DNA from: Bacteroidota bacterium
GTDB lineage: Bacteria > Bacteroidota > Bacteroidia > AKYH767-A > OLB10
NCBI GenBank assembly: GCA_040007375.1
Contig: JBDTVD010000003.1
Span: forward strand, 1 to 36,990
Length of the DNA: 36,990 nucleotides
Reading direction: 5' to 3'
Shown: piece by piece, positions 21-36,762 of the stretch
Layout: every line of letters starts with the position of its first letter
Numbering within the stretch: the stretch's first letter is position 1
Translations under genes and position numbers: made by a program
The notes under the pieces: model-generated
Seen by the model: the letters and a program-made list of their open reading frames with translations, nothing else
What the model was told of the DNA's origin: nothing
Database searches by the model: none

Positions 21-65
21 ACCTTTGCGAACCTTTGCGTTTTATTCCTTTGCGCACTCTGCGGT
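21..65. repeat. Short imperfect tandem repeat (CCTTTGCG x3 plus CTCTGCG)
   Basis: CCTTTGCG at 22-29, 32-39 and 47-54, and CTCTGCG at 57-63, upstream of the 117 start. Confidence 0.8.
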
Positions 66-116
66 AAAAAGAAAATCATTAATAGAAAGATAAAATTTTA
101 AGAACAGAAAAGTATT

Positions 117-1085
117 ATGAATTGGCTGGATTATATTTTTGATGATAGAGTTGCTTTTGAGGAGAAGGCATTATCTGTTTTTCAATATCAAGTTAAAGAA
201 AACAAACTATATGCTGATTATATACTTGCTTTAAATACTAATATTGATGAAGTAAAACGTATTGAAGATATTCCTTTCCTTCCTGTTTCCTTTTTCAAAA
301 CGCATAAAGTAATTTGTGGTGATGAAAATTTTCAAAATGCATTCACCTCCAGCGGAACAACAGGTGATACATCGTCGCATTATATAAAAGACCTTGCTCT
401 TTACGAAAGCAGTTTTATGAAATCGTTTGAACAGTTTTATGGTGATATAACAGAGTATTGCTTTCTTGCCTTACTTCCTTCTTATCTCGAACGCGAAGGT
501 TCATCGCTTGTATATATGTGTCAGCATCTGATTGAGAAAAGTAAACATCCGTTAAGTGGATTTTATCTTCACAACAGGAGCGAATTATATCAATCACTTC
601 AACAATTAAAAAAGGAAAATCAAAAAACAATTCTGATCGGTGTTACTTATGCTTTGCTTGATCAGGCAGCAGATTTTCCAATGGATTTTCCGGAGTTAAT
701 AATTATGGAAACAGGAGGGATGAAAGGCAAACGAAAGGAAATGATCAGGGAAGAGATTCATGATATTTTAAAAGCTGCATTTCATGTTAATGCTGTTCAT
801 AGTGAGTATGGTATGACGGAATTATTATCGCAGGCCTGGTCAGCCGGAAATGGTGTGTACATTTGTCCGGCATGGATGAAACTGCTGGTACGGAATGTAA
901 ATGATCCGATGGAAGTAAAAAGTAAAGGTTCCGGTGGAGTGAATATTATCGATCTTGCCAATATATATTCCTGTTCTTTCATTGCAACACAGGATCTGTG
1001 CATAATAAATGATGATCATTCTTTTACCATCATCGGCAGATTTGATAACAGTGATCTGCGTGGTTGTAATCTGATGATTTTATAA
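117..1085 (+). CDS. LuxE-like acyl-protein synthetase / acyl transferase (ANL superfamily)
   Basis: FTSSGTTG adenylation motif, IMETGGMKG, SEYGMTEL, and C-terminal GR..SDLRGC. Confidence 0.85.
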   Translation: MNWLDYIFDDRVAFEEKALSVFQYQVKENKLYADYILALNTNIDEVKRIEDIPFLPVSFFKTHKVICGDENFQNAFTSSGTTGDTSSHYIKDLALYESSFMKSFEQFYGDITEYCFLALLPSYLEREGSSLVYMCQHLIEKSKHPLSGFYLHNRSELYQSLQQLKKENQKTILIGVTYALLDQAADFPMDFPELIIMETGGMKGKRKEMIREEIHDILKAAFHVNAVHSEYGMTELLSQAWSAGNGVYICPAWMKLLVRNVNDPMEVKSKGSGGVNIIDLANIYSCSFIATQDLCIINDDHSFTIIGRFDNSDLRGCNLMIL

Positions 1086-1090
1086 AAAAT

Positions 1091-1125
1091 AGTATCAAGA
1101 CATTAGTATCAAGTATCAAGACTAA
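1091..1125 (+). repeat. Heptamer tandem tract AGTATCA/AGACATT/AGTATCA/AGTATCA/AGACTAA
   Basis: Five 7-bp units starting 5 nt after the luxE-like stop. Confidence 0.85.
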
Positions 1126-1141
1126 AAACAGAATTTTAAAA

Positions 1142-1363
1142 ATGTCGAACAGAAGAAGAATCATAATAATAATGGTATCTGTAATTTCAGGAACCGTACT
1201 TTCCTTTTTTATTTTCAAAGCCAGAAAAGGTCCTGCCGGATTAACCAATGACGATTATTCAACCCTCATCACTAATTTTATTTTTTCACTGGCAATCATT
1301 GTCGGTGTAGGTTTAATGTTTGCATGGAAGAAAAATAAAGAAGAGAAGTCTGACAGGAATTAG
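1142..1363 (+). CDS. Small hypothetical membrane protein (2 predicted TM helices)
   Basis: 73 aa ORF with two hydrophobic stretches and basic termini, filling the gap between two + strand genes. Confidence 0.65.
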   Translation: MSNRRRIIIIMVSVISGTVLSFFIFKARKGPAGLTNDDYSTLITNFIFSLAIIVGVGLMFAWKKNKEEKSDRN

Positions 1364-1394
1364 TTATTTTGGTGCACTTATAAACTCAGTCACC

Positions 1395-2660: not shown

Positions 2661-2675
2661 GAAGATAAAAACGAT

Positions 2676-2683
2676 TATTTTTG
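2676..2683 (+). promoter_or_regulatory. Bacteroidota housekeeping -7 promoter element TAnnTTTG (TATTTTTG)
   Basis: Exact consensus match 5 nt before the desaturase ATG. Confidence 0.6.
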
Positions 2684-2688
2684 CCTCG

Positions 2689-3756: not shown

Positions 3757-3880
3757 TTTCTCTTTTTCTTTAAAACATTTTATTAACTGCAACAGTATTC
3801 ATAATAATTTCTGTTGATTGCGTTTATACACTATTGCTGATGGTAACTTTACATCTTGCCACAGGAAAGTGATAACATTA

Positions 3881-4582: not shown

Positions 4583-4644
4583 GAATAATGTTAAATGCCG
4601 GTTACTCTTTCAGGTATTGCTGCCTCCTCTCAGCAGTTAAATGT

Positions 4645-4652: not shown

Positions 4653-4658
4653 TCGCGC

Positions 4659-5135: not shown

Positions 5136-6715
5136 GTGATCAGATTTCCGCCAGAAACATCTGGCTTCCTTTAATAATGGGTGTGGTGATGGCATCAGGA
5201 ATTTATATAGGCACACGTATGGTTGCTGTTCCTGTTGCAACAGGTAATAATAAAATTAATGATGTATTAAGTTATGTTCAGGATGCATACGTTGATACTG
5301 TTAATCGTGCACAGCTTACCGACAAAACAATTGAGAAAATGCTGGAACAGCTCGATCCGCATTCATCATATATTCCGGCCGCTGATCTGCAGGCTGCAAA
5401 TGAACCGCTCGAGGGAAATTTTGAAGGAATAGGAATCGAATTTCATATTCAGCAGGATACATTAATGGTTGTAGCTGCGTTGTCAGGTGGTCCCAGTGAA
5501 GCATTGGGAATTCAACCCGGCGACAGAATTATAAAAGTGGATGAAAAAATTGTTGCAGGTAAAGGAATTACCAACGACCAGGTTTTTAAAATGCTGCGTG
5601 GAAAGGGTGGATCTAAAGTTAAGGTAGCAATCAAACATCCGGGCAGCAATAAGCTCACTGATTATATAATAACGAGAGGTAAAATTCCTATATATAGTGT
5701 TGATATCGCTTACATGGCTGATGCAGCAACAGGGTACATTAAGGTGAGCCGTTTTGCAGAACCAACCTATGATGAATTTGTTGCTGCATTACGTAAATTA
5801 AAAGCTCAGGGAATGAAAAAACTCATCCTCGATTTAAGAGGAAATCCCGGAGGCTATCTGAATGCTGCTACTGATATTGCTGATGAAATGATTGATGGTA
5901 ATCGTTTGCTGGTTTATACATTGGGAAAGTCGAGACCACGTACTGATTACAAAGCAGGAAAACCAGGACTTTTTGAAAATGGAAAACTGGCAGTATTAAT
6001 TGATGAAGGATCTGCATCAGCTTCGGAAATTGTTTCCGGTGCACTTCAGGATTGGGATCGCGCAACAATTATTGGTCGTCGTAGTTTTGGTAAAGGATTA
6101 GTGCAGGAACAATCCGGTTTTCCTGATGGATCTGCAATGAGACTTACTGTTGCACGGTATTATACACCAACTGGAAGGTGCATACAGAAAACATATGCAA
6201 ATGGTGTGGAAGCATATAATGATGATTTGTTAAATCGCATTAAACATGGTGAGCTGATGAGTGCAGACAGTGTTAAAATTACTGACACTTTAAAATACAG
6301 AACACCTGCGGGAAAAATTGTGTACGGTGGAGGTGGAATCATGCCTGATATATTTGTTCCATTAGATACTACTTATGATACGGATTATCTCAACTCAGTT
6401 GCATCTGCTGGTTTGTTAAATCAGTTTGCTTATGATTATGTGGATTCACATCGTTCAGAATTAAAAACATTTTCCGGTGCTGCCGATTTCAGAAACCGTT
6501 TTAATAGCAATACTATTCTGAATAATTTTTATGATTTTGTTGAAAAGAAGGGAGTGAAGCGTAATGCAGAACAGATCAAAAGATCATCAGGATTAATTGC
6601 TGTGCAACTGAAAGCATTTATCGGCAGGTTGATATGGCAGAATGAAGGATTATACCCGGTTTTACAGGATGCTGATCCTGCATTTCAAAGGGCATTAAAG
6701 TTTTTAAACAGCTGA
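5132..6715 (+). CDS. S41 family carboxy-terminal processing protease (PDZ plus peptidase)
   Basis: LDPHS, GIGI PDZ loop, DLRGNPGG, SASASEI and FGKGLVQ. ATGA overlap with the upstream gene. Confidence 0.95.
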   Translation: MSDQISARNIWLPLIMGVVMASGIYIGTRMVAVPVATGNNKINDVLSYVQDAYVDTVNRAQLTDKTIEKMLEQLDPHSSYIPAADLQAANEPLEGNFEGIGIEFHIQQDTLMVVAALSGGPSEALGIQPGDRIIKVDEKIVAGKGITNDQVFKMLRGKGGSKVKVAIKHPGSNKLTDYIITRGKIPIYSVDIAYMADAATGYIKVSRFAEPTYDEFVAALRKLKAQGMKKLILDLRGNPGGYLNAATDIADEMIDGNRLLVYTLGKSRPRTDYKAGKPGLFENGKLAVLIDEGSASASEIVSGALQDWDRATIIGRRSFGKGLVQEQSGFPDGSAMRLTVARYYTPTGRCIQKTYANGVEAYNDDLLNRIKHGELMSADSVKITDTLKYRTPAGKIVYGGGGIMPDIFVPLDTTYDTDYLNSVASAGLLNQFAYDYVDSHRSELKTFSGAADFRNRFNSNTILNNFYDFVEKKGVKRNAEQIKRSSGLIAVQLKAFIGRLIWQNEGLYPVLQDADPAFQRALKFLNS

Positions 6716-20256: not shown

Positions 20257-21223
20257 TCTAAAATCCCTGCAACAGCTCATTGATGAAAAGCTGAAGCTGA
20301 TTGAATTCCCGGAGCATCCATCAAGTTTATATGAACCGGTAAAATATATGTTAAGTATTGGTGGGAAGCGGATACGTCCGCTTCTCGTATTAATGGCCTG
20401 TGATCTTTTTAATGGTGATATTAATAAGGCTATAAATCCTGCATTGGCGATAGAAGTATTTCATAACTTCACTTTACTGCATGATGATATAATGGACAAA
20501 GCACCTGTTCGCAGAAATAAGGTTACGGTGCATGAAAAGTGGAATCCAAATATTGCAATACTTTCCGGTGATGCGATGTTTGTGAAAGCTATTCAGTTGT
20601 TATTGCAAACGGATGAATCAAAGATTAGATCAATAACAGATGTTTTTACTGCAACTGCATTAGAGGTGTGCGAAGGACAACAGCTTGACATGGATTTTGA
20701 AAACCGGCAGGATGTTTCTCTTGATGATTACCTGCATATGATCAGACTGAAAACGGCTGTTTTATTAGGATGCTCATTAAACATAGGAGCGATAGTTGCC
20801 GGAGCCTCAAAAGAAGATTGTGATCATATATATAGTGCGGGATGTAATTTAGGGCTGGCATTTCAACTGCAGGATGATCTATTGGATCTTTATGGCGATG
20901 AACAGCAGTTTGGAAAAATTCCCGGTGGTGATATTATTGCAAATAAAAAAACATTTCTGCTTTTGAAAGCACTGGAACTGGCTGATGAAAGTCAGAAGAA
21001 TGAAATAGTATATATAATGAGTAACCCTTCTCTTCAGCCGGTTGAAAAAGTAAGCCGGATGAAATCGATTTTTGATGAATTACATATAGCTGATCATACT
21101 TTAGAAAAGATGGAAGTATATTATCAGTTGGCTATGCAGATGATAAGTACGTTGCATGTTCCTGATGAAAGGAAAAGTTCACTTACAGGACTTGCAGAAA
21201 GTCTCCGGGTACGAGTAGCATAA
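20249..21223 (+). CDS. Polyprenyl diphosphate synthase (FPP/GGPP synthase family)
   Basis: GGKRIRP, FARM motif HDDIMD..RR, KT motif, and SARM motif FQLQDDLLD. Confidence 0.93.
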   Translation: MSDLKSLQQLIDEKLKLIEFPEHPSSLYEPVKYMLSIGGKRIRPLLVLMACDLFNGDINKAINPALAIEVFHNFTLLHDDIMDKAPVRRNKVTVHEKWNPNIAILSGDAMFVKAIQLLLQTDESKIRSITDVFTATALEVCEGQQLDMDFENRQDVSLDDYLHMIRLKTAVLLGCSLNIGAIVAGASKEDCDHIYSAGCNLGLAFQLQDDLLDLYGDEQQFGKIPGGDIIANKKTFLLLKALELADESQKNEIVYIMSNPSLQPVEKVSRMKSIFDELHIADHTLEKMEVYYQLAMQMISTLHVPDERKSSLTGLAESLRVRVA

Positions 21224-21224
21224 T

Positions 21225-21300
21225 AATTCTAAATTAGAAATTCTAAATTACAGGTAGTACTATTTCATTTATAATTTATAATTTATAATTTCTAATTTCT
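21225..21300. repeat. Two inverted heptamer tracts (AATTCTA/AATTAGA and AATTTAT/AATTTCT) between convergent genes, possible bidirectional terminator
   Basis: 21231-21250 is the reverse complement of 21279-21298 at 19/20 positions, with the palindrome TAGTACTA at 21255-21262. Confidence 0.8.
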
Positions 21301-21301
21301 T

Positions 21302-21814
21302 TTAGTGCTCAACTCCGCCTTGTCCATGAACATGTCCATGTGCAAGTTCTTCGATAGTTGCTGGTCTTACTCCAACAACTGATCCTGTAAAGTGAAGATC
21401 CATTCCTGCAAGTGGGTGATTGAAATCCATAGTTACTTCTTTATCATCAAAGCCCAGAACTTTTCCACGCAGCATATTACCTTCGTTATCCGACATTGGT
21501 AAAATGTTTCCGGTTTTTAAAACTTCAAAATCAATAACATTATCAACTTTAAAAATTTCAATTGGCAATTTGATTACTGCCGTTGCATCAGCAGAACCAT
21601 ACGCTTCTTCAGGTTGAATGCTGAAAGAAAATGTGTCGCCATTGGAAAGACCATTTAAATTGGTTTCAAATCCTGGTATCATCATACCTGATCCGAAAAT
21701 AAAAACAAGCGGATTGCTTTCATCAACGCTTTCTATTTCTTCAACCGGACTTCCGGCTATTCCCGCTTTCAGATTATAAGTAACTGATACGACGGAGTTT
21801 TGTTCGATTTTCAT
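21302..21814 (-). CDS. slyD: FKBP-type peptidyl-prolyl isomerase, SlyD family
   Basis: PEEAYG, DFNHPLAG, VRPATIEEL and His-rich tail HGHVHG. Confidence 0.9.
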   Translation of the reverse strand: MKIEQNSVVSVTYNLKAGIAGSPVEEIESVDESNPLVFIFGSGMMIPGFETNLNGLSNGDTFSFSIQPEEAYGSADATAVIKLPIEIFKVDNVIDFEVLKTGNILPMSDNEGNMLRGKVLGFDDKEVTMDFNHPLAGMDLHFTGSVVGVRPATIEELAHGHVHGQGGVEH

Positions 21815-24137: not shown

Positions 24138-24166
24138 CAATAAAAATTAATAATTGAAGTTAACTT

Positions 24167-24240
24167 CGATATTCGTTATTCTTTGCTTTTCATTCTTCGT
24201 ATTCATTTTTCATGAAGGAGAAGAACGATATTTGTTATTC
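24167..24240 (-). repeat. 15-bp direct repeat built from heptamers (GAATAAC RAATATC G on the minus strand)
   Basis: cgatattcgttattc at 24167-24181 versus cgatatttgttattc at 24226-24240 (14/15). The second abuts the 24241 stop. Confidence 0.65.
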
Positions 24241-25224
24241 CTAGTTCTCCGGTATTTCAGGATCAGCGTTTATAAAATCAGCAGGATCAAAATCCAAAAT
24301 GGGAGCGACGTTTGTTCTTTTTCCAAACTTATACCTAATCATCACTCTAACAAATGCAGAGGAACTTATATCATATTTCTCTTCACCAAGCTGTACCCAT
24401 GATCGACCTGAAATTCCAATATCCGGTTCTACAGAAAGTTGATAAGATATTTTTAATTTCATCTTAAAGGCCAACTGAAATTCTTTATGACGGAACTTTA
24501 CATCTTCAAGAACAAGACTGTCATTAACAGGAAGATTTACAGTATACATTCCTCCAAAAGGCCGTAGTGAAACTCCTGCAGCAAAACGGCGGCTGAAAAA
24601 ATGTGTGTACTGAACATAAGCAGGAAACATAAATGTGATAAGATCTTCTTTCAATGGTCTCCAACTGATTCCTGCAAGAGGAAGAATTTTGTTGCTTCCA
24701 AAAACGGATGTATATACTGCTCCCAGTGTATATGAAAACTGATCATTGCTTCTATGTCTCCAGAATAAACTTCCATTTACATAGGTTCCTTTGAAATTGA
24801 AAAAAGATGCGTAATCATGTGCATTTATTCCCTGTACATTCAGCATATATAAATTACGAAGTCCTTTGGAATATATAAAGCTTCCTCCAAGCCGTAATCG
24901 TAATAATTGTAAGCTGTCAGGAATAAAATCACCTGCAGGTTGTAAATAAGATACTGCACCTTGCAACGTAACTCCCACCAAAGGTGTATTTCCTGTTGAT
25001 GTTAACCAGTCTTTCCCACGATATAACGGAATATTAAATGATCCTTCTCCACGATAATAGCCAAACTTATTTTCAAAGGTATCTACCTGGCTGGCTATTC
25101 TGTCTTCAGTATTTATTTTAATCCACGATGATAACAATGGATGTGGTCCGGGCCATACCTGCGACTGCGATTGAATCGTAATTAAAACAAGGAAAGCAGA
25201 AAGAATTAAGCTATTTTTGATCAT
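24241..25224 (-). CDS. Hypothetical outer-membrane beta-barrel protein (DUF6268-like)
   Basis: Signal peptide, amphipathic strands, and LGAVY...LPLAGISW pattern. Confidence 0.65.
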   Translation of the reverse strand: MIKNSLILSAFLVLITIQSQSQVWPGPHPLLSSWIKINTEDRIASQVDTFENKFGYYRGEGSFNIPLYRGKDWLTSTGNTPLVGVTLQGAVSYLQPAGDFIPDSLQLLRLRLGGSFIYSKGLRNLYMLNVQGINAHDYASFFNFKGTYVNGSLFWRHRSNDQFSYTLGAVYTSVFGSNKILPLAGISWRPLKEDLITFMFPAYVQYTHFFSRRFAAGVSLRPFGGMYTVNLPVNDSLVLEDVKFRHKEFQLAFKMKLKISYQLSVEPDIGISGRSWVQLGEEKYDISSSAFVRVMIRYKFGKRTNVAPILDFDPADFINADPEIPEN

Positions 25225-25263: not shown

Positions 25264-25608
25264 ATGCTTCCTGAAAAAAAAGAAAATAGCGAACTGTCAA
25301 CACATCGTTTTAATAAGGAAATTATTGAAGCGGTAATTGCTCAATTGGAAAAGGATGTAATGATGTGTGGAGGTGATCTTAAGATTACTGAAGCATCATA
25401 CACTGATCTGGAATTATTAAAGGAAGAAGTTCAGAAGTATCTTTCATCTGTATCAGATAAAAATCCCACTTTGTTATTTAACCTGTTATACCGGATTGAT
25501 ATTCCACAAAAGATGCTGGATCAAAAAAACGGAAGCTTAGGAACGCTGGTATTGAAAAGAGAATTGACGAAAGTGCTGATCAGGATTTCTTATAAGAAAA
25601 GTGATTAA
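25264..25608 (+). CDS. Conserved-looking hypothetical protein
   Basis: 114 aa with QLEKD...LFNLLYRIDIP...LKREL.KV pattern, which resembles a small Bacteroidota family. Confidence 0.75.
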   Translation: MLPEKKENSELSTHRFNKEIIEAVIAQLEKDVMMCGGDLKITEASYTDLELLKEEVQKYLSSVSDKNPTLLFNLLYRIDIPQKMLDQKNGSLGTLVLKRELTKVLIRISYKKSD

Positions 25609-25635
25609 ATGATTAGGTGATTAAGTAATTAGGTG
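25601..25635 (+). repeat. Octamer tandem tract GTGATTAA/ATGATTAG/GTGATTAA/GTAATTAG
   Basis: Four 8-bp units, the first containing the stop codon of the 25264 ORF. Confidence 0.8.
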
Positions 25636-25736: not shown

Positions 25737-26204
25737 TTATTGACAAATAAATCTGAAAACTGTCATTGGTCTGGGTTCATCCTCATATATATATTTATCC
25801 ACTAAATCTGAATACATATTTTCCGGAGGCTTTCGGTATTGCTCATAGATTTTAATGCTATAGAACTTTACCTCTGTTCCTGATGTACATTTGTTAAGAA
25901 CCTGAATATAAGAGTCAGGTAATTTACTTCCGGTTACATGAAGTATTGTGTCGACACTATTTGAAGCATCATGAATAGAGACCTCATAGGACACAATCCT
26001 TACTGTATCTTTTCTTAAATTTTTACCAGAACGATATTTGACGGATAACTCCTTAACCATAAAGACAGGGAAGTCTGGGTGACTATGAGGATTTCTTGGT
26101 AAAAATATTATATCTGGAAGAGGGATATTATCAGTTTTAGGGGACTCCTGAGCTGATGAAGCTTTAAAAAGAAATATAAATACGATTGCCAGGAATCGGT
26201 TCAT
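25737..26204 (-). CDS. Hypothetical secreted protein, possibly GldM/PorM C-terminal-domain-like
   Basis: Signal peptide. The pattern PLPD...RIVSYEVSI...VTGSKL...LNKC.SG.EVKFYSIK recalls the last GldM domain (recognition only). Confidence 0.6.
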   Translation of the reverse strand: MNRFLAIVFIFLFKASSAQESPKTDNIPLPDIIFLPRNPHSHPDFPVFMVKELSVKYRSGKNLRKDTVRIVSYEVSIHDASNSVDTILHVTGSKLPDSYIQVLNKCTSGTEVKFYSIKIYEQYRKPPENMYSDLVDKYIYEDEPRPMTVFRFICQ

Positions 26205-26935: not shown

Positions 26936-26970
26936 TACGAATACGAATCTGTACGAATTTACGAATGAAT
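26936..26970. repeat. TACGAA(T) tandem tract immediately upstream of lptB
   Basis: Four TACGAA cores within about 30 bp, 1 nt from the lptB start codon. Confidence 0.75.
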
Positions 26971-26990
26971 TATTTCCTGAGAGAAATTAA

Positions 26991-27054
26991 TTATTAATTA
27001 TTCATTTTTCATTATTAATTAAAATACAAGTTGCAGGGTTGCTCTGAATCCGAA
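26991..27054 (-). repeat. Direct-repeat copy of the DUF5686 gene 3' end (36 bp) plus four heptamers
   Basis: 27019-27054 matches 27165-27200 at 34/36. Heptamer tract 26991-27018 parallels 27137-27164. Offset is 146 bp. Confidence 0.93.
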
Positions 27055-27136
27055 ACAATCGAATGAATAATTAAAAATTGAATACATCTAAATTAATAAG
27101 TAAGGACGAATGGTTAATATTTAAAAACAAATTTAA

Positions 27137-27164
27137 TTCTTAATTCTTAATTATTAATTCTTCA
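27137..27164 (-). repeat. Heptamer tract (TTCTTAA)2 TTATTAA TTCTTCA abutting the stop codon
   Basis: Four 7-bp units directly adjacent to the stop at 27165. Confidence 0.85.
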
Positions 27165-29675
27165 TTAAAACACAAGTTGCAGGCTTGCTCTGAATCCGAA
27201 CTGTGTTGGCACCGTTGCTTTTTCTCCAAACCGTTCTTTATATAATATTTTGTAGGGTTCATCTATATAAGTTAACCTCCAGATAAAATCAACACGCAGC
27301 ACCTTCAATATATTTTCCACTCCTGCACTTACTTCTGTATATGGTTTTGTTAAAGATGAAAACGCATTTGGGTTGGTTAATATTTCACGGTTAGCATTAC
27401 TCAGACTTCCACTTATTGCTTTAATACCCACAATTTCTCTCCATTTCAACTTGCGCATCAGTGGAACTTTATCAAAGAAGAAACCATCGAAGTGATGTGT
27501 TGCAAATACGCTGACATAATAATCACTTACAAATTCAAAATAGTTCATCATGTTGAATGCTGCATAATCATAAAAATAACTTTCATTTCCCGGATGTACT
27601 TCCAGCAATGGATAGGGAATTGTTCCCCAGATTCTTCCTGCCTGAACAACATAATAGGTATAACCAAATGGTTTGATTTTAATCTGGTCGTCAATTTTGA
27701 TAGTGACTTTATGATAATCAAAATCACTTTTCAGAAAATCTTTTATTCCTGCAACATAATTAACCTGCAATGTTGGATATGCACTTCCAATACTGATCCT
27801 GTCCGATCTTCCGGTAACAAATTTTTCACGATAGAGAAAACGGGTATATAAGGAAACCTCTGTGGAACTGATAGTGTTTTTAATTGCAGTTTTTTCATCA
27901 TTGGTGTAATACGAATAATTCAAACTGCCCAATGGATCAAAATCAGTATGTGTAAGAGTAATTTTATTGGAGAAACCTGGAAGCCATTCAATTTCATACC
28001 ATGCTTTCTGTTGCTCCATGTGTGTGAGTTTATCAGCCGGAGATCGACGGAATAAACTTGTTAATATATTATCATCCTGAAATGCATTATCACTTTGACC
28101 TAATTGCTGCACATCATTTTTATATCCTGCACCGGCAAACTGTCGCGGCTTTTTAGAAAGCATATATTTTATTCCGCCACCATATTTAAATTCTTCATCC
28201 TTTGTACCATAAGCAAGATAACTGCTCAGTTGCAATCGTGTGCTGAAATTATCACTTGTTCGTCCGCCAAAACGAAAACGAGCACCTTCCACTGCATTAA
28301 AACTAAAGAAGGTATAATAAGGTCCAAGTTCAAATTTTCCAATCTCTTTGTATCCTGTAAAAAATAAAGTAATGATATCAACATAACTTTTAAAAGCAGG
28401 CAATGTTTTAATAGTATCTACCATGTGATAGATTTTCTGTTCGCGTTCATTGAGACTATCATGTCGTGAATCTTTCCAGAAATCAACTGTTCGGTTTAAC
28501 GCATCATCAACCACCACTATATTTTCTGATCCATCAAAAATAGCATCGCTTATAGGTTGATTAAAAATAAATCCTTTGTATGATGTAGATTTTCTGCCAA
28601 TGAAACCCATTCCATCTTCCTTAGCAGCAAAATCAATTACAAGCATATCCTTGTTCTGCATCCATTGCTTACCATCAACATAGGTATATTCCTGCACAAT
28701 GGCCATGTCGTCAATCCAGTTGATATTTGCATCCTGTGCAATACGCATCTGTATTTTTTTTACAGCCCAGGTAGTATCGTTCACCCAGAAATCACCAGTG
28801 AAAGTAAGCTCCTGCGGACGTCGTGGTTTGAATTTTAATTTATAGCACCACTGATTGTCAATTGTAGTGCTGTCGATGAGATAATAACGATAATATAATA
28901 AACCAAGATCACTGATCGGACTTACGAAAGCTTTATTAAATATATCGATATAATTCTGATATATATTAACGCGTTGATACATGTCGCCAAGAAACTGTGT
29001 AACAGAAGCATTTTCCAATCCGGAAATTTTACTGGCTTTAATAATTTCTTTTTTATTTTTCGGATTGTTGCGGAAATAAAAATCAGAAAGTGTTTCTGAA
29101 ATAAAGAATGGAAGAAAAGGTTTGCTGTTTGTTTCTGTGCTGTCAACGTTATCCCAGATAAATGCAAATGGCTTTAATAATTTTTTGCCTTTGAATTTCT
29201 CACTGATGTTGGTAAGATCAAATTCTACTTTATTATATACTTCATATTGATACGACTGCAAATTGGAAGGATCATTTTCATCTTTATGTTTAATAATATT
29301 CCTTACTATAATATTTGCAGGATTTTCACCTGCTTTTATTTCAACTTCATGCAGATCAGACTGACTTGATTTCAGGGAGAAGTTAATTGTTTGAGCTTGT
29401 CCTTTTCTTATCCGGAGAGCAACTGTTTTGTATCCGATGAGTGTACATATTAAACTGTCAGATGGCGTTGAAGTGATGATGCGGTAATTACCATCCATAT
29501 CAGTATTGGTTCCGGCCTGCATTCCTTTCATCACAACAGTTGCAAAAGGAATCGGTTCATTGGTAAGTTCGTCAGTTACCTTTCCACTGATATTGGTTAC
29601 CTGCGAAAATCCGGTTAGTGTAAGTAAACAAAGCAAAAGCAGAGGAAGGATCCTGTATTGTAAAAGATGTTGCAT
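27165..29675 (-). CDS. DUF5686-type outer-membrane protein with N-terminal carboxypeptidase-like regulatory domain
   Basis: ISGKVTD..TNEPIPFATV, GTNTDMDGNY, YQYEVYNK, SPIS..YYRY, NAVEGAR.R.GGRT, GVENILK and terminal Phe. Confidence 0.85.
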   Translation of the reverse strand: MQHLLQYRILPLLLLCLLTLTGFSQVTNISGKVTDELTNEPIPFATVVMKGMQAGTNTDMDGNYRIITSTPSDSLICTLIGYKTVALRIRKGQAQTINFSLKSSQSDLHEVEIKAGENPANIIVRNIIKHKDENDPSNLQSYQYEVYNKVEFDLTNISEKFKGKKLLKPFAFIWDNVDSTETNSKPFLPFFISETLSDFYFRNNPKNKKEIIKASKISGLENASVTQFLGDMYQRVNIYQNYIDIFNKAFVSPISDLGLLYYRYYLIDSTTIDNQWCYKLKFKPRRPQELTFTGDFWVNDTTWAVKKIQMRIAQDANINWIDDMAIVQEYTYVDGKQWMQNKDMLVIDFAAKEDGMGFIGRKSTSYKGFIFNQPISDAIFDGSENIVVVDDALNRTVDFWKDSRHDSLNEREQKIYHMVDTIKTLPAFKSYVDIITLFFTGYKEIGKFELGPYYTFFSFNAVEGARFRFGGRTSDNFSTRLQLSSYLAYGTKDEEFKYGGGIKYMLSKKPRQFAGAGYKNDVQQLGQSDNAFQDDNILTSLFRRSPADKLTHMEQQKAWYEIEWLPGFSNKITLTHTDFDPLGSLNYSYYTNDEKTAIKNTISSTEVSLYTRFLYREKFVTGRSDRISIGSAYPTLQVNYVAGIKDFLKSDFDYHKVTIKIDDQIKIKPFGYTYYVVQAGRIWGTIPYPLLEVHPGNESYFYDYAAFNMMNYFEFVSDYYVSVFATHHFDGFFFDKVPLMRKLKWREIVGIKAISGSLSNANREILTNPNAFSSLTKPYTEVSAGVENILKVLRVDFIWRLTYIDEPYKILYKERFGEKATVPTQFGFRASLQLVF

Positions 29676-30920: not shown

Positions 30921-30927
30921 AAATTTT

Positions 30928-30962
30928 AGTATCAGATATCAAGATACAAGTATCAAGATTGA
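30928..30962. repeat. AGTATCA-family heptamer tract upstream of tatC
   Basis: AGTATC AGATATCA AGATACA AGTATCA AGATTGA, the same unit as 1091-1125. Confidence 0.75.
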
Positions 30963-30970
30963 TTATATAT

Positions 30971-31005
30971 AATTTTGAATTTATAATTTTGAATTTATAA
31001 TTCTT
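30971..31005 (-). repeat. Heptamer tract AATTTTG/AATTTAT x2 plus AATTCTT abutting the kdsD stop
   Basis: Five 7-bp units directly adjacent to the stop at 31006. Confidence 0.85.
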
Positions 31006-31971
31006 TCAAAAAATTCCTTCTTTAATGAGATCATGCAGATGCACAAAGCCAAGAAATTTTGTTTGATCCATTACTACCAGTTGTGTGATGTTATTTGTTT
31101 TCATCAATTGTAAAGCTTCAACAGCCATAGTTTCTTTCTGAACGGCTTTTGGTTTTTTTGTCATGATGTCTTTTGCACTAAGCTTATCATAAGTTTTATG
31201 CTTCTGCATCATGCGTCGTAAATCGCCATCGGTAATTATTCCCAAAAGTTTTCCTTTACTGATAACAGCAGTGGCACCAAGTCGTTTTGAGGAGATTTCT
31301 AAAATAACTTCATTAATAGAAGCTGCCGGACCAACTGTTGGTTTCGGATTCTGATCATGCAGATCTTCCACTTTCAGATATAACTTTTTACCAAGAGCGC
31401 CACCTGGATGGAACCTTGCAAAATCCGCGCTGGTAAAACCACGGTATTCGAGCAGGCATACAGCCAGTGCATCACCCAACGCAAGTTGCGCAGTGGTGCT
31501 GCTGGTAGGAGCAAGATTATGCGGACAGGCTTCTTTTTTAACATAAGTATTCAGTACAAAATCTGCATGTGAAGCAAGAAAGCTATCCACGTTTCCTGTC
31601 ATGGCAATTAGTGTATTACCACCATTTTTAATCAGCGGTGCCAGCACTTTAATTTCCGGTGTATTACCACTGTTACTGATTATAATTACCACATCATTTT
31701 TCTGTATTGTTCCCAGGTCACCATGAATTGCATCAGCAGCATGCATAAACACTGATGGTGTACCTGTGGAGTTAAAAGTAGCTACCATTTTCTGGGCAAT
31801 AATGGCACTCTTTCCAATTCCGCTCACCACCACACGGCCACCTGATTTAATAATGAGCTTAACAGATCCTGCAAAATCATTATCAAGGTTTTTAATCAAA
31901 TCCTTTACAGAGTCTGCTTCCAGCTGCAGGGTTCGTTTGGCAATTGCAAGTATTTGTTGTTCAGCTTTCAC
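31006..31971 (-). CDS. kdsD: KpsF/GutQ family arabinose-5-phosphate isomerase (SIS plus CBS)
   Basis: GIGKS, HGDLG, SNSG.T.E, EACP.NLAPT.S, FHPGG.LG and ITDGDLRR. Confidence 0.94.
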   Translation of the reverse strand: MKAEQQILAIAKRTLQLEADSVKDLIKNLDNDFAGSVKLIIKSGGRVVVSGIGKSAIIAQKMVATFNSTGTPSVFMHAADAIHGDLGTIQKNDVVIIISNSGNTPEIKVLAPLIKNGGNTLIAMTGNVDSFLASHADFVLNTYVKKEACPHNLAPTSSTTAQLALGDALAVCLLEYRGFTSADFARFHPGGALGKKLYLKVEDLHDQNPKPTVGPAASINEVILEISSKRLGATAVISKGKLLGIITDGDLRRMMQKHKTYDKLSAKDIMTKKPKAVQKETMAVEALQLMKTNNITQLVVMDQTKFLGFVHLHDLIKEGIF

Positions 31972-32152: not shown

Positions 32153-32160
32153 TATCTTTG
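32153..32160 (+). promoter_or_regulatory. -7 promoter element TATCTTTG for recQ
   Basis: Consensus match 32 nt upstream of the ATG. Confidence 0.6.
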
Positions 32161-32192
32161 CGTTCCGCAAAAAAAATTAAGTAGAGAGAGAC

Positions 32193-34385
32193 ATGTTAGT
32201 TGCAGAGAATACACTTACAGAAGCATTACATAAGTTTTTTGGTTATGAATCATTTAAAGGTGATCAGGAAGCAATCATTAAGCAGGTATTAGAAGGGAAG
32301 AACACTTTTGTGATCATGCCAACAGGTGGTGGTAAATCAATGTGTTACCAGCTTCCTGCTTTAATGAGTAAAGGCACAGCAATTATTATTTCACCACTTA
32401 TTGCACTGATGAAAAATCAGGTAGATGCAATAAGAGGTTTTAATACTGATGATGGTGTTGCACATTTTATGAATTCATCACTCTCCAAAGCTGAAATTGC
32501 CAAGGTGAGAAAGGATATTAAAGCAGGGAAAACGAAATTATTATATGTCGCTCCTGAATCGCTGACCAAGGATGAAAATGTTAAGTTTCTTAAGGAAGTT
32601 GATATTTCATTTTTTGCCATTGATGAAGCACATTGTATTTCAGAATGGGGTCATGATTTTCGCCCTGAATACCGTCGTTTACGACCAATTATAGAACAGA
32701 TCGGTGATCTTCCTATAATAGCTCTTACTGCAACAGCTACTGAAAAAGTGCAGGCTGATATTCAAAAGAATCTCGGAATGATGGACGCTATTGTTTATAA
32801 AGCATCTTTCAACCGTCCTAATCTCTATTATGAAATCCGTCCGAAGAGAGATGTAATTAAGGAGATCATAAAGTTTGTAAAGCAAAACACCGGTAAGTCC
32901 GGAATCATATATTGTCTCAGTAGAAAGAAAGTAGAGGAAGTAGCTCTTACACTTACCGTAAATGGAGTGAAGGCACTTCCTTATCATGCCGGTCTTGATG
33001 CAACAACACGTGCTACTCACCAGGATAAATTCCTGATGGAAGAAGTGGATGTGATTGTTGCAACGATTGCATTCGGTATGGGAATCGATAAGCCAGATGT
33101 TCGTTTTGTAATTCATCATGATATTCCGAAAAGTCTGGAAGGTTATTACCAGGAAACAGGAAGATCCGGTCGTGATGGCCGCGAAGGAAAATGTGTGACT
33201 TTTTACAGCTATAAGGATATTGAGAAGCTGGAGAAATTTATGAAAGGTAAACCTGTTGCAGAACAGGAAATTGGTAAGCAGCTTTTACTGGATACCGTTG
33301 GTTATGCAGAAACATCTGTTTGCAGAAGAAGAGTTTTATTACATTATTTCGGAGAAAAATATTTGCAGGATAATTGTCAGAGTTGTGACAACTGTTTACA
33401 TCCAAAACAAATGGTAGAAGCACAGGACGAATTAGAAATGATGCTGGAAGCAGTGCTTGCTGTTAAAGAAAAACATCAGAGCGAACATGTAGTGAATGTA
33501 CTGGTTGGTAAAACTGATCAGGCTGTTAAAACATATAAGCACGATAAACTGGAAGTGTTTGGTGAAGGTGCTGATAAAGATGAACGCTTCTGGACAGCAT
33601 TAATACGTCAGGCATTGCTTGCTGGTTTTTTAACTAAGGATATTGATAATTACGGTTTGCTGAAAATGACTGATGGAGGTCAGGCATATCTCAAAAATCC
33701 AACTACATTCAAGATTGCACTCGATGCTAATTTTGAAAATACGGAAACGGATGATGATGATGACTTCGGCGGAGCAGGAGGTGGAGGTGCAGCGGATGAA
33801 CAGTTGTTTGCCATGCTTAAAGATCTGCGCAAGATTGAAGCAAAGAGATTGAATCTTCCTCCTTTCGTAATCTTCCAGGATCCTTCACTCGAAGAGATGG
33901 CTACCAATTATCCTATTAACATGGAGGAGATGAAAACCATCACCGGTGTAGGTAATGGTAAAGCATCAAAGTATGGTGTGCCGTTTATCAACATGATTAA
34001 TAAATATGTTGAAGAAAATGAAATTGAGCGTCCAAATGATTTAATCGTAAAGAGTGTTGCAAATAAGAGTGTATTGAAAGTATATATTATTCAGAATATT
34101 GATCGTAAGATTTCATTGAATGATATGTCACGTGCAAAAGGAATATCGCTGAGTGATCTCTTAACAGAAATTGAAACCATTGTTTCATCAGGAACACGAA
34201 TTGATATCAATTATTATATAAACGAAATAATTGATGAAGATCGTCAGGAAGAAGTATATGATTATTTCCGTACTGCAGAAACGGATTCAGTTCAGGAAGC
34301 ATTAGTAGATCTTGGTGAAGATGATTACACACAGGATGATATCCGCCTGATGCGTATTAAATTTATGAGTGAATTAGGAAATTAA
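32193..34385 (+). CDS. recQ: ATP-dependent DNA helicase RecQ
   Basis: MPTGGGKS, DEAHCISEWGHDFRP, TATAT, QETGRSGRDG, Zn-binding CRR..C..CDNC, RQC and HRDC. Confidence 0.97.
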   Translation: MLVAENTLTEALHKFFGYESFKGDQEAIIKQVLEGKNTFVIMPTGGGKSMCYQLPALMSKGTAIIISPLIALMKNQVDAIRGFNTDDGVAHFMNSSLSKAEIAKVRKDIKAGKTKLLYVAPESLTKDENVKFLKEVDISFFAIDEAHCISEWGHDFRPEYRRLRPIIEQIGDLPIIALTATATEKVQADIQKNLGMMDAIVYKASFNRPNLYYEIRPKRDVIKEIIKFVKQNTGKSGIIYCLSRKKVEEVALTLTVNGVKALPYHAGLDATTRATHQDKFLMEEVDVIVATIAFGMGIDKPDVRFVIHHDIPKSLEGYYQETGRSGRDGREGKCVTFYSYKDIEKLEKFMKGKPVAEQEIGKQLLLDTVGYAETSVCRRRVLLHYFGEKYLQDNCQSCDNCLHPKQMVEAQDELEMMLEAVLAVKEKHQSEHVVNVLVGKTDQAVKTYKHDKLEVFGEGADKDERFWTALIRQALLAGFLTKDIDNYGLLKMTDGGQAYLKNPTTFKIALDANFENTETDDDDDFGGAGGGGAADEQLFAMLKDLRKIEAKRLNLPPFVIFQDPSLEEMATNYPINMEEMKTITGVGNGKASKYGVPFINMINKYVEENEIERPNDLIVKSVANKSVLKVYIIQNIDRKISLNDMSRAKGISLSDLLTEIETIVSSGTRIDINYYINEIIDEDRQEEVYDYFRTAETDSVQEALVDLGEDDYTQDDIRLMRIKFMSELGN

Positions 34386-34386
34386 A

Positions 34387-34421
34387 AAGTAATTAGTGAC
34401 TAAAGAATAGTGACTAGTGAT
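34387..34421 (+). repeat. Heptamer tract AAGTAAT TAGTGAC TAAAGAA TAGTGAC TAGTGAT
   Basis: Five 7-bp units starting 1 nt after the recQ stop. Confidence 0.75.
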
Positions 34422-34429
34422 ATATAAAG

Positions 34430-34461
34430 AAACCATCGGTAATAGTTATCGGTGGTTTTTT
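34430..34461 (+). terminator. Rho-independent terminator of recQ
   Basis: Stem AAACCATCGGTAA / TTATCGGTGGTTT (two G-U pairs), 3-nt loop, running into a T tract. Confidence 0.8.
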
Positions 34462-34526
34462 ATTTTATATATTCTTAAAGACAATGCATAATCAACCGCT
34501 TTGAGGATGAAACAGAAAATTTCTCG

Positions 34527-36560
34527 TCAGGATTTTGTTGCTGATAAAAGATCAAGAGCTTCCTTAACGGAAAAAACAGGTTTTTTACAACTGTTATTGG
34601 AACAAATATAAATTCCTGTTTTTCCTTCCGCAAATCTTCCTTTAAACAATAAGTTATTTTCATCAGGCTTAACTGAAAACAGCAACAAGCAACCAGGCAA
34701 ATAATATGATGCAAGTTCCTGATAATACTGCATTGCTTTATCACCGCAAATAACCACTTCATAAAAATCATTCTGCATCATCAATGCATTTTCCGCCCAG
34801 CACGAATACCAGGGTGCAGATTGTTCAATATGTTCTTTCACATTATTCACCATCCGTTGTGCCTGTTCCCGCCAGTCAGTATTACCGGTAATTTTGCTTA
34901 ATAAAAAAAGATTTCTGCACATCGCTGCATTGGAAGAATTGATAACGTTATCCTGTACTTCCATTTTGCGCATAATAAGTTGTTCTCCGTTTGATGATGT
35001 ATAATAAAACATACCCGAATCATCATCTGCAAAATAAGTTATTGCAGTTTTCATCAGTTGCAATGCAAATTGCAGATGTTGTTCGTCACCTGTACATTGA
35101 TATAGTTCAGTGATGGCATTTATGGTAAATGCATAATCGTCGAGGTAACCTTTTAAATTCGCCCTGTTGTTTTTTGCTGTGCGATAGAGTTCGCCATCAT
35201 TATATAAAACTGTTTTGATGAAAGAAGCATTCTTCACAGCAGCATCCAGCAACTTTTCATCTTTAAAAGAATGGTAAGCATCAATATATCCTTTCATCAT
35301 TAATGCATTCCACGAACAGATCTGTTTATCATCAAGGCCGGGAGCTATTCTCTTCTTCCTTTCTTCCCATAAAAGTGTTTTGCATTCTTCAATTATTTTA
35401 TCCAGTTGCTCCGTTGTAATGTTAAACTTTGACTCTACAGATTTTGTATCCTCTATACGTTGCAGAATATAAAATTCTTCCTCCCAGATTTCATCTTTTC
35501 GAATTTTATAATAATCAAAGAATATTAATTTTTTATTTTTCTCTTTTATGATCGATGAAAGTTCTTTCTCTGTCCACACATAAAACTTTCCTTCCACACC
35601 TTCTGAATCTGCATCAAGAGCTGAATAAAAACTACCTTCCGGTGTTGTCATTTCTCTTTTAATAAATTCAAGAGTAGCAATAACAGTTTCTTTATATATT
35701 GAATTCTTCTGTATCCGGAATGCATGCGAATAAAGTGAAACCAGTTGTGCATTGTCATAAAGCATTTTTTCAAAATGAGGAATTTTCCATTTGCCATCTG
35801 TAGAATAACGCGCAAAACCGCCGCCCAACTGATCAAATATTCCACCTGTTGCCATTTTCTGCAATGTAAGTTCTATCTGCTTAAGGCAGTTTTCATCAGC
35901 AGTATGATAATAATAATGCAAAAGAAACTCCCAGTTGGAAGGCATAGGAAATTTAGGAACACGGTTCATGCCTCCGTCAACCTTATCAAACTGGGTTTCA
36001 AAAAATTTATATATAGAAGAAAAATCAAACTGTGCAGTATCCTCCGACTTATAAACCTGTTCAAGATTGCTTATTCCTGCAGTAAGTTCCTCCGCATATT
36101 TCCTGCATTGATCCGGATCATTCTTATAAAGTTCAACAACCTTAAGTAAAATCTGTTGCCATTGTGATCGTGTAAAATATGTTCCGCCATAAAATGGTTT
36201 CTGATCCGGCAATACGATGCAGTTCAATGGCCATCCACCACGTCCTGTCATCAGTTGCACAGCATCCATATATATAGCATCTACATCAGGCCGTTCTTCC
36301 CGGTCAACTTTTATGCTGATGAAATTGTCATTCATAATCGCCGCTGTCGTCACATCTTCAAAACTTTCATGTTCCATTACATGACACCAGTGACAGGAGG
36401 AATATCCAATACTTATTATTACCGGTTTATTTTCCAGTTGTGCTTTTTCAAAAGCAGAAGCAGACCATGGAAGCCATTTAACAGGATTATAAGCATGCTG
36501 CAGCAGATACGGACTGCTTTCATGAATTAATGCATTTGCAGGAAGAGAAGAATCAGACAT
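34527..36560 (-). CDS. Thioredoxin-domain protein YyaL/SSP411 family (DUF255 plus alpha-toroid)
   Basis: [40 protein letters not shown] and [13 protein letters not shown]. Confidence 0.93.
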
Positions 36561-36564
36561 GCTG

Positions 36565-36572
36565 CAAAAGTA
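36565..36572 (-). promoter_or_regulatory. -7 promoter element TACTTTTG
   Basis: Consensus match 4 nt before ATG 36560. Confidence 0.6.
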
Positions 36573-36713
36573 ACTGCCTTTATAACATCATTGTCTGATT
36601 TAAAATAGCTCTCAATTTTTTGCAGATTTAATTCCAACAGGCAAGATGCCTGGGGATGATTTATTTTCTATTTATGTTTTGTAAGCACGAGCAGGATGAT
36701 CGCGCTAGAGTAA

Positions 36714-36762
36714 TAAATCGTAAATCGTACTTCGTAAATCGTACTTCGTAAATCGTACCTCA
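36714..36762 (-). repeat. Heptamer tract TAAATCG/TACTTCG x7
   Basis: TAAATCG TAAATCG TACTTCG TAAATCG TACTTCG TAAATCG TACCTCA, 3 nt from the stop at 36766. Confidence 0.92.

Follow-up and report, generated by a model that had tools for sequence, protein, structure and literature searches.

Intervening sequences (IVSs) in bacterial 23S rRNA are the described elements most like those reported here. As presented in PMC4990558, the IVS of Coxiella is a selfish element with a 28-bp terminal stem that is cut by RNase III and an open reading frame (ORF) of the S23p family in the loop. The same account places two to three tandem GACAGAT heptamers, variable among strains, upstream of the S23p ORF. By that account, a 5' purine-rich heptad array beside a four-helix-bundle (4HB) cargo gene has already been recorded in a distant phylum. 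This paper was the sole link between the 4HB family and heptameric repeats that we found in the open-access literature searched; two genome papers, PMC8700078 being one, list 'four helix bundle protein' genes and no more. Heptanucleotide repeats have been reported as the commonest class of long simple sequence repeats (SSRs) in most prokaryote genomes, and slippage has been proposed as their origin (Mrazek 2007, as cited in PMC4679880). TAACTGA direct repeats were described from Beggiatoaceae, Cyanobacteria and five Bacteroidetes (MacGregor 2015, PMC4679880). In its discussion of function, that paper proposes a post-transcriptional role with S1, Csp and Csr proteins as candidates, and it points to Bacillus subtilis CspB, which it describes as binding one protein per heptamer. 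The prokaryote heptanucleotide excess, the TAACTGA repeats, the cyanobacterial short tandemly repeated repetitive (STRR) sequences and rRNA IVSs with S23p ORFs were therefore known already. Here we describe short tandem tracts in a 36,990-nt stretch of DNA from a Bacteroidota bacterium (contig JBDTVD010000003.1, assembly GCA_040007375.1; hereafter the window). With somewhat more confidence than doubt, we assign these tracts to a genome-wide set of ~870 short heptad (some octad) arrays, which we interpret as arms of small cassettes that lie between genes and are related to 23S rRNA IVSs.

The genome (label G000) is a 3.72-Mb, 88%-complete assembly of 467 contigs with 36.6% G+C, and the window is its contig C3. 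Proteins in the window with Por_Secre_tail, DUF5686 and CarboxypepD_reg domains back the Bacteroidota affiliation. Its genes are ordinary housekeeping genes, among them TatC, an SIS-CBS isomerase, RecQ, an ABC ATPase, a polyprenyl synthetase and an esterase with a type IX secretion system (T9SS) tail. We called genes crudely by greedy choice among ORFs of at least 80 aa, which gave 3027 genes and 90% coding density; start positions are therefore uncertain. Arrays were called with Tandem Repeats Finder (TRF) on intergenic DNA only and compared with five dinucleotide-preserving shuffles of each spacer. The window tracts were located by TRF together with direct reading of the sequence. We call an array R if it is purine-rich and Y if it is pyrimidine-rich on the strand stated. 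The genomes of relatives named below are labelled G001, G002, G004, G005, G007, G024, G029 and G030.

We found paired arrays around the 4HB genes of this genome. Eight genes, all above the curated cut-off, belong to TIGR02436 (the 4HB, '23S rRNA intervening sequence protein' or S23p family). An array lies upstream of seven of them, compared with 10.4% of 2365 genes (Fisher p = 1e-6), and six of the eight have arrays on both sides, compared with 3.1% overall (74/2365; Fisher p = 3e-8). The initial annotation had suggested this association, and it holds here as well as in the relatives and named genomes described below. Pair analysis returned inverted array pairs of the same family at six of the eight loci, and the arms of the locus at C158:4211-4657 are complementary by eye. 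NCBIfam assignments place the 4HB genes at sdhC-4HB-sdhA-4HB-sdhB, scoA-4HB-scoB, pyruvate dehydrogenase (PDH) E1alpha-4HB-E2, atpA-4HB-atpG and preT-like-4HB-preA, after serC and beside kdpB. The arms fill the spacers: the R arm begins 4-17 nt past the stop of the upstream gene (gene A), and between the end of the Y arm and the ATG of the downstream gene (gene B) there are 0-7 nt. A full cassette runs from the gene A stop through an R array, a short leader, the 4HB gene and a reverse-complement Y array to the gene B ATG; it lies between co-transcribed genes and has the same direction as they do. In the predicted fold of the atpA-4HB-atpG RNA, the arms pair without interruption over 24 bp and enclose the ORF, in the minimum-free-energy (MFE) and centroid structures alike (whole-molecule z = -2.4). 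The folding model thus has the arms pairing into a stem of ~24 bp that loops out the cargo. The eight 4HB genes carry eight different arm unit families, and six of these families also occur as orphans.

The same succinate dehydrogenase site recurs outside this genome. Loci C158:3300-7899 (L047), L028 (G024) and L034 (G030) each have a 4HB cassette before the sdh iron-sulfur subunit gene, in three genera and with different arms. G000 carries a second cassette before sdhA. The downstream gene was named by eye from its first residues in G024 and G030 and by NCBIfam in G000.

TIGR02436 genes were present in 25 of 31 relatives, with 0-10 copies in each. We scored 19 further 4HB loci from 12 relatives, and 12 had an inverted-arm score of at least 14 that exceeded the direct score. 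In two more, TRF units or inspection by eye revealed arms; a further two had direct repeats and three were unclear. The arms of a G+C-richer relative were G+C-rich yet still purine-first. We then scanned named genomes, one per species, with an alignment of seven 4HB proteins. More than 600 matches resulted, and we retained the top 80, a set biased to the NIAEG-type subfamily and to the best matches. These 80 loci come mostly from Bacteroidota and also from Ignavibacteriota, Planctomycetota, Opitutae, Desulfosarcina, Thermodesulfobacteriota, Clostridia and Caldilineaceae. At each locus, the 250 nt upstream were compared with the reverse complement of the 250 nt downstream (score at least 14, z at least 4, 30 shuffles). 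Significant inverted arms were found at 52 of the 80 loci, or at 49 with another shuffle seed. In the 52, the upstream arm was purine-rich in 46 cases and pyrimidine-rich in 3, and G exceeded C in 48 versus 2. The best period was 7 in 37 of 49 arms and 8 in six, whereas period 7 was best in one of 49 control segments taken from inside ORFs. For flanks with a single assignable coding strand, the neighbour ran in the same direction as the 4HB gene in 47 cases against 3 upstream and in 50 against 0 downstream; the remaining flanks (upstream/downstream) were open on both strands in 22/20 cases and on neither in 2/3. Matched arms around co-directional, operonic 4HB genes therefore occur across phyla.

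Arm similarity was correlated with 4HB protein similarity (Mantel r = 0.32 over 37 loci, with 0 of 2000 permutations as high), a correlation to which close kin contribute. Three 4HB proteins with AGTATC[AG] arms form a clade (97/92), and one of them sits at another locus. In G029, which has nine 4HB genes, a backwards control pattern (ACTATGA x3) gave 13 matches, with almost none elsewhere; G029 therefore has an abundant heptad family of its own.

Heptad arrays are abundant throughout the G000 genome. The excess over background that the initial annotation had anticipated was found at period 7 (471 intergenic arrays against a mean of 21.0 in dinucleotide shuffles), and also at periods 8 (176 against 25.8), 14 (141 against 7.6), 16 (37 against 3.4) and 21 (42 against 0.8). 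Together these periods account for 867 intergenic arrays, compared with 58.6 in shuffles, and periods 9-13 showed no excess in the same intergenic comparison. At least one array is present in 385 of ~2560 spacers (~15%). The arrays hug gene ends, stops above all, as had been noticed in the window: 139 of 524 array-to-stop distances are 5 nt or less or overlap the stop, and the same is true of 41 of 394 array-to-start distances. There are 115 arrays in the 337 convergent spacers and 50 in the 387 divergent ones.

The arrays also obey a polarity rule. The initial annotation had described the window tracts as mostly A/G-leaning after stops and pyrimidine-leaning before starts on the sense strand. 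Genome-wide, the sense strand was purine-rich in 234 of the 262 tracts within 15 nt past a stop (G 18%, C 7.9%), and 67% of the 126 tracts within 40 nt upstream of a start were pyrimidine-leaning. Read 5' to 3' outward from the nearest gene end, arrays were R in 237 of 276 cases at stops and 82 of 117 at starts. On the plus strand, arrays proximal to the left gene were R in 223 cases and Y in 68, and those proximal to the right gene were Y in 235 and R in 88, a trend present in all four spacer classes. Two-array spacers (n = 115) comprised 77 R..Y, 2 Y..R, 17 Y..Y, 12 R..R and 7 with a tie. Spacers with at least three arrays followed the order 'all R, then all Y' in 40 of 53 cases, whereas 2000 orientation shuffles gave 22.6 +/- 3.5 (maximum 34). 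Because R..Y reads R..Y on both strands, the rule is independent of gene direction, and this symmetry makes purines after stops and pyrimidines before starts a single geometric rule. The pattern first described thus holds, but it is not tied to the sense strand. The suggestion that a family of small elements has these tracts as its left and right ends is supported in the form of two arms in a fixed R..Y architecture.

The order reverses when genes rather than spacers are viewed from outside. Among 79 host genes flanked on both sides, the pattern was Y-gene-R in 47 and R-gene-Y in nine, and 4HB genes make up four of those nine. The other five are ORFs of 94-259 aa (C196:112-555, C285:821-1303, C369:2403-3020, C11:9842-10621 and C42:1212-1496). 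A search of these five against NCBIfam gave no match, and they may be further types of cargo. An origin by break repair or a telomerase-like activity, in which each 3' end is extended with the G-rich strand, would also yield R..Y. We considered stop codons in all frames as the cause of period 7 and dropped the idea, since AGTATCA and GGAGTTC lack a stop triplet in the purine orientation.

The simplest alternative is that the arrays are neutral microsatellites, produced in place by polymerase slippage that favours 7-nt units, with no mobility, cassette link or function, and with a polarity that reflects strand-biased mutation or weak selection. The reported standing of heptanucleotide repeats as the commonest SSR class and the slippage already proposed for them (Mrazek 2007, as cited in PMC4679880) speak for this view, as do the mostly low copy numbers (2-6), the lack of conservation in orthologous spacers and drift inside arrays. 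The longest array, at C145:8061-8368 (308 bp), has a unit that drifts through AAATTAT, AAATTAG, AAGTTAG, AAGCTAG and CAATTAG, which shows local mutation and re-expansion inside one array. The units are diverse, as had been noted, but far from random: 470 period-7 arrays reduce to 87 canonical heptamers, and a few families dominate (AAATTAT 92, AAGTATC 62 and AACTCCG 59) and recur in other genera and orders. Slippage predicts neither these dominant families nor the copying of a 23-nt compound module to 62 loci with unrelated flanks, the ratio of 77 R..Y to 2 Y..R, or the inverted arms round 4HB genes in 52 of 80 named genomes. We regard a purely neutral origin as decidedly unlikely.

The arrays have been copied between sites. 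The genome contains 62 copies of the 23-nt compound module AGTATCAAGACAYAAGTATCAAG. In the 56 copies with full flanks, conservation is limited to ~35-45 nt and the gene-side flanks are unrelated. Because conservation ends at the array and the cassette inner edge is shared by only 11 of 253 AGTATCA array ends, we take the array alone to be the copied unit; a larger common element reaching beyond the array was rejected on these two observations. A search for AGTATCA x3 with up to two mismatches gave 47 matches in G000, 24 and 18 in two genomes of the same genus and 34 and 6 in two other genera, and none in the 14 other same-family and 12 same-order genomes searched. The AGTATCA family also forms 4HB arms in one Pedobacter and two Prolixibacteraceae.

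Comparison of orthologous spacers revealed rapid gain, loss and swapping of arrays. The spacer between the polyprenyl synthetase and FKBP genes is 78 nt with two arrays in G000 and 32 nt with none in G001. The TatC/SIS-CBS spacer has two arrays in G000 and none in G001, and in G002 and G007 its arrays belong to other families; the spacers between the ABC ATPase and DUF5686 genes are 230, 83 and 34 nt long. At atpA/atpG, the site is filled in G000 and G002, is a short bare spacer in G005 and holds a cargo-less R..Y heptad hairpin in G004. G007 has no cargo at this site; it carries a lone R array whose unit family is that of the R arm of G000. The scoA/scoB site is filled in G000, G001 and G002 and has spacers of ~15-20 nt in G004 and G005; in G001, a different 4HB subtype stands behind an outer arm shared with G000, so the cargo has been replaced. 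At E1alpha/E2, G000 and G007 have homologous cargo with different arm families, and the site is unoccupied in G002 and G004. Neither an insertion junction nor a target-site duplication was discernible between filled and empty sites in these comparisons, in which the species are highly diverged and the spacers very A-rich. The atpA/atpG 4HB gene of G002 (G002:C103:144738-145046, in L065) contains an in-frame TAA and keeps its arms. Such decay of the cargo is reminiscent of the Coxiella S23p ORF, for which reductive evolution has been reported.

Arrays could also be the terminal inverted repeats of miniature DNA transposons whose transposase is encoded elsewhere. Inverted arms, presence or absence between relatives and the many cargo-less copies are in keeping with such elements, and so are contig breaks at arrays (72/934 ends) and metagenome contigs with unlike flanks. 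A single transposase, however, could not use the 400 of 485 adjacent array pairs that belong to unrelated families. The arms are tandem repeats of variable length rather than fixed termini, and the dispersed unit is a 35-45-nt array with no shared interior. We consider this explanation highly unlikely.

Within the window, TRF and direct reading recovered nearly all of the tracts described in the initial annotation at stops and starts (Table 1). Some details changed. The supposed tandem tract at 24160-24240 is not a heptad but a copy of a dispersed 80-90-nt element; the repeat at 21-65 has period 10 and belongs to a CGCAAAG-type class instead of the heptad families; and a stop placed at 36762 is that of an ORF ending at 36766-36768. 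As stated there, neither a TIGR02436 nor a TIGR04256 gene lies in the window.

Table 1. Repeat tracts and related features in the window (positions are those of the 36,990-nt stretch; R and Y refer to the plus strand unless noted)
Feature	Position	Strand	Context
Period-10 repeat, CCTTTGCG units	21..65	+	Pyrimidine-leaning; upstream of LuxE-like gene 117-1085; CGCAAAG-type class, not heptad
Compound AGTATCA + AGACAYA module, R	1091..1122	+	5 nt past stop (1083-1085) of gene 117-1085; putative orphan arm
AATTCTA/AATTAGA array (AATTNTA type), R	21225..21251	+	Directly past polyprenyl synthetase stop (21223); left arm of cargo-less predicted hairpin
ATTTATA array (AATTNTA type), 4.6 copies, Y	21267..21299	+	Right arm of the predicted hairpin; on the minus strand, R after FKBP stop 21302-21304
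Dispersed 80-90-nt element copy, no heptad	24156..24245	-	Adjoins stop of gene 24241-25224; not called by TRF
GTGATTAA-type array, period 8/16, R	25599..25635	+	TAA stop of 114-aa ORF 25264-25608 lies inside first unit
TACGAAT array, R on plus	26936..26970	+	Abuts ATG (26934, minus strand) of ABC ATPase gene; sense strand ...TTCGTAG-ATG
ATTAATT array (TTAATTC type), 5.1 copies, Y on plus	26986..27021	+	Joined to decayed second DUF5686 3' end, 27018-27060
TTAATTC array, 4.9 copies, Y on plus, R on sense	27133..27166	+	Overlaps DUF5686 gene stop 27165-27167
AGTATCA-type array, R on plus, Y on sense	30928..30962	+	8 nt upstream of TatC start (30920)
TATAATT/TTGAATT array, Y on plus, R on sense	30968..31002	+	3 nt past SIS-CBS gene stop (31006-31008)
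TAGTGAC array, R	34394..34420	+	8 nt past RecQ stop; separate hairpin + T-run terminator downstream, 34430-34462
TCGTAAA/TCGTACT array (TACGATT type), period 7/14, Y on plus, R on sense	36714..36758	+	7 nt past stop of minus-strand ORF that exits the window

The R-left/Y-right rule is obeyed in all eight tract-bearing spacers of the window (8/8, by TRF and reading by eye). The window's arrays also share their unit families with the cassettes of the genome (AGTATCA, AATTAAG/TTAATTC, GTGATKAG-like and TAGTGAC-like). The family of the array at 27133-27166 forms the arms of a 4HB cassette on C98, and the core of the module at 1091-1122 is the 23-nt sequence found 62 times genome-wide. The two arrays between the polyprenyl synthetase and FKBP genes each lie within 2 nt of a stop; the first has a period-7 self-match of 0.71. 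Their arms pair in the predicted fold of 21221-21304 (-13 kcal/mol, z = -3.39, with 0 of 200 shuffles as good), and a small hairpin is predicted at 34383-34425 (z = -4.46). Elsewhere, RNA from the tracts was predicted to be unstructured at 1091-1122 (z = +0.43), 27133-27166 (z = +0.91) and 36714-36758 (z = +1.11), and the spacer with the 30968-31002 array showed no structure (z = 0.00). Under the cassette reading, the window tracts would be cargo-less arms, either orphan singles or empty R..Y pairs, that were left by cassettes or copied from them.

Two features of the window concern neighbouring sequence. A 71-nt alignment pairs ~26983-27054 with 27129-27200 and covers a TTAATT-type array together with the last ~40 nt of the DUF5686 gene, which looks like a tandem duplication of array and gene end with one copy decaying. 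ORFs 25264-25608 (114 aa) and 25737-26204 (155 aa) had no Pfam or NCBIfam match, and the first is conserved at 86% identity in G001 and 51% in G002. The dispersed element at 24156-24245 gave 12 blastn matches including itself (77-100%), the 11 others lying on 10 further contigs with 77-93% identity. It has an internal hairpin-like core and stands upstream of an R..Y array pair in two spacers of contig C10.

The positions of these tracts also suit periodic binding sites, an option raised in the initial annotation. Untranslated regions would then carry one protein every 7 nt (an S1-like or cold-shock protein, another binder of single strands or the 4HB protein itself) that tunes mRNA stability at 3' ends and translation at 5' ends. 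Arrays lie between a stop and a terminator (34394-34420 before 34430-34462) or abut starts, as at 26936-26970; the junction TTCGTAG-ATG occurs 12 times in the genome and is also present in G007. The RNA of solo arrays lacks structure, no two 4HB paralogues share a unit family, and both a post-transcriptional role for TAACTGA and CspB binding of one protein per heptamer have been put forward in PMC4679880. Gene-specific regulation would not lead one to expect that the same genes in sister species have no arrays or have arrays of another unit family. With 87 distinct canonical heptamers, and with one symmetric rule covering the polarity at both stops and starts without two functions, we think binding sites an unlikely explanation.

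Arrays might instead be terminators or processing signals themselves. They are enriched at stops and in convergent spacers (115/337, against 50/387 in divergent ones), and complementary pairs such as the one at 21221-21304 are predicted to fold. Most arrays, however, lack a complementary partner and are unfolded. Canonical hairpin and T-run terminators are separate and lie, in many spacers, between R and Y arrays, and arrays also occur inside operons, where termination would be harmful. This possibility seems to us very remote.

Several observations weigh against the cassette reading. Over 95% of arrays are cargo-less, and in this 88%-complete assembly the commonest family, AAATTAT (92 arrays), is not found beside any 4HB gene. 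The C165 cassette has direct arms and lies on the strand opposite to its neighbour kdpB. Among the named genomes, 28 of the 80 4HB loci lacked significant inverted arms and nine had stronger direct repeats, and AGTAGAA arms accompany three unrelated 4HB proteins. Polarity at start ends is weaker (70%), and six of the eight window spacers, with solo or mixed-family tracts, fold no better than shuffles. Of 485 adjacent array pairs, just 40 join an array to an inverted copy from its own family; stem formation therefore cannot be the role of most arrays. The small share of AGTATCA ends with the cassette inner edge (11/253) also counts on this side. The derivation of orphans from cassettes is suggested by one clear orthologous case (atp in G007) and by shared unit families, and arrays may instead have come first, with 4HB genes settling between them later. 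Finally, cleavage, translational coupling and avoidance of Rho, set out below, are roles that we infer.

On the cassette reading, matched arms in RNA may be cut by RNase III, by analogy with rRNA IVSs. Genes for RNase III and Rho are both encoded in the genome. Alternatively, the arms could bring the gene A stop next to the gene B start, where a terminating ribosome would melt the base of the stem and free the downstream start. Rho prefers C-rich, G-poor unstructured RNA. The first-made arm would be single-stranded while ~350 nt of cargo are transcribed and so would have to load Rho poorly, which a G-rich, C-poor R arm may do. Orphan arms are, for the most part, probably without function themselves.

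A bolder proposal, which we regard as doubtful, is that the 4HB genes are specificity factors of an undescribed class of mobile elements, each paralogue recognising, spreading or maintaining its own heptad unit. Operonic, cargo-bearing cassettes would then be the autonomous copies, and orphan arrays would be non-autonomous derivatives or footprints. If this were true, the heptanucleotide excess of many bacteria and the rRNA IVSs would be two faces of one element family, which would behave like an intron of operons excised by RNase III.

The initial annotation had also linked such tracts to GxxExxY genes (TIGR04256), and in that form this link is not supported. The genome has four TIGR04256 genes. 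None of the four has arrays on both sides, and two have a downstream array, compared with 17.9% of genes (p = 0.15). In relatives, 26 of 30 GxxExxY loci were scorable and 13 of the 26 had significant inverted flanks. Period 7 was best in 0 of the 13, polarity was mixed (8 R to 5 Y) and the flank units were 8-12 nt of CGCAAAG/CACAGAG type; on the period and polarity we rejected heptad R..Y arms beside these genes. These flanks resemble a second repeat class with CCTTTGCG and CGCAAAGG units, a period of ~8-12 and no R..Y polarity, seen at window positions 21-65, upstream of position 6057 on G000 contig C175, and in L196 and L203. A stretch similar to 21-65 lies upstream of the GxxExxY gene on C175, and 21-65 is the only window tract that resembles this class. 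The heptad family TACGAAT of the window (26936-26970) was found after one GxxExxY gene.

Independent sequencing runs supported the window sequence. Single contigs span three of the tract-bearing spacers with zero differences, including 25599-25635 (run X4) and 34394-34420 (runs X1 and X2); the three bridged tracts are therefore not assembly artefacts. Four DNA runs cover the window at a depth of only 2-5 and list no insertions or deletions. Window array positions draw many metagenome contigs with unlike flanks, with depth up to 831 in one bin. Across the genome, a period-7/8 array is present within 30 nt of 72 of the 934 contig ends, though such arrays make up 1.1% of the sequence, and the atp and pdh cassette loci of G001 coincide with contig breaks. 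Because arrays fragment these assemblies, the number of arrays reported here is an underestimate.

The cassette reading could tie together, and make testable, the over-representation of heptanucleotides in some bacteria and the purpose of the S23p/4HB genes of rRNA IVSs. In at least one Bacteroidota lineage, cargo-less arms would then occupy ~15% of spacers under a strict mirror rule. In practice, the arrays break metagenome assemblies, give host genes stop codons and 5' leaders, and change fast enough to serve as strain markers.

We compared these elements with the known systems. We did not find the strand-symmetric R..Y rule described in the open-access papers and preprints searched, nor, in the open-access literature searched, a cross-phylum, operon-internal 4HB cassette with heptad arms or a link from cassettes to orphan arrays; part of this may be known outside the open literature, to the curators of these families. 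Miniature inverted-repeat transposable elements (MITEs) with autonomous partners are similar in that a few cargo-bearing and many cargo-less copies share ends and differ in presence between relatives. They differ in that no transposase was noted here, where no search for an associated one was made, the ends are tandem arrays of variable length, and the left and right arrays of one spacer are usually of different families. Matching terminal inverted repeats, expected of every MITE copy, are found in 40 of 485 adjacent pairs, and 400 pairs are unrelated. Nor do the arrays resemble intrinsic terminators, since solo arrays are unfolded and the canonical terminator at 34430-34462 is separate. The cyanobacterial STRR sequences are likewise tandem intergenic heptamers, in a different host phylum. 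Cyanobacteria are also rich in 4HB genes.

Long SSRs of 5-11 nt (Mrazek 2007) are, as cited in PMC4679880, tandem, mostly heptanucleotide, intergenic, patchy among lineages and far above expectation, and the arrays described here are alike in these respects; the excess at periods 7 and 8 places them among 5-11-nt tandem units above composition. As cited there, the SSRs come without a polarity rule, arm pairing or a link to a gene family. The TAACTGA repeats of PMC4679880 also form heptamer arrays near start codons, and once past a stop in reverse orientation, with a patchy spread that suggests transfer; the paper's account of Gramella and Aequorivita places other heptamer repeats in the same spacers. 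They differ in having a single unit, and the text of PMC4679880 available to us makes no link to cassettes or 4HB genes. Membership of the TAACTGA family was rejected for this genome, which has 0 doublets and 888 single occurrences.

The 23S IVSs of Coxiella, Leptospira and other bacteria remain the closest match. Both they and the cassettes carry TIGR02436 cargo between terminal inverted repeats that can form a ~24-28-bp stem, rely on host transcription in highly expressed units, and have purine-rich heptamers upstream of the ORF. Stem-forming termini are predicted for the cassettes and, among the window tracts, only at 21221-21304, apart from the small hairpin at 34383-34425. An S23p ORF lies in the loop in the genome's eight cassettes, and the window tracts are cargo-less. 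The cassettes differ in occupying spacers between protein-coding operon genes rather than helix 25 or 45 of 23S rRNA, in having heptad arrays of many families as both arms, and in being accompanied by hundreds of cargo-less arms. Excision by RNase III has been shown for the IVSs, and by analogy the cassettes may be processed in the same way.

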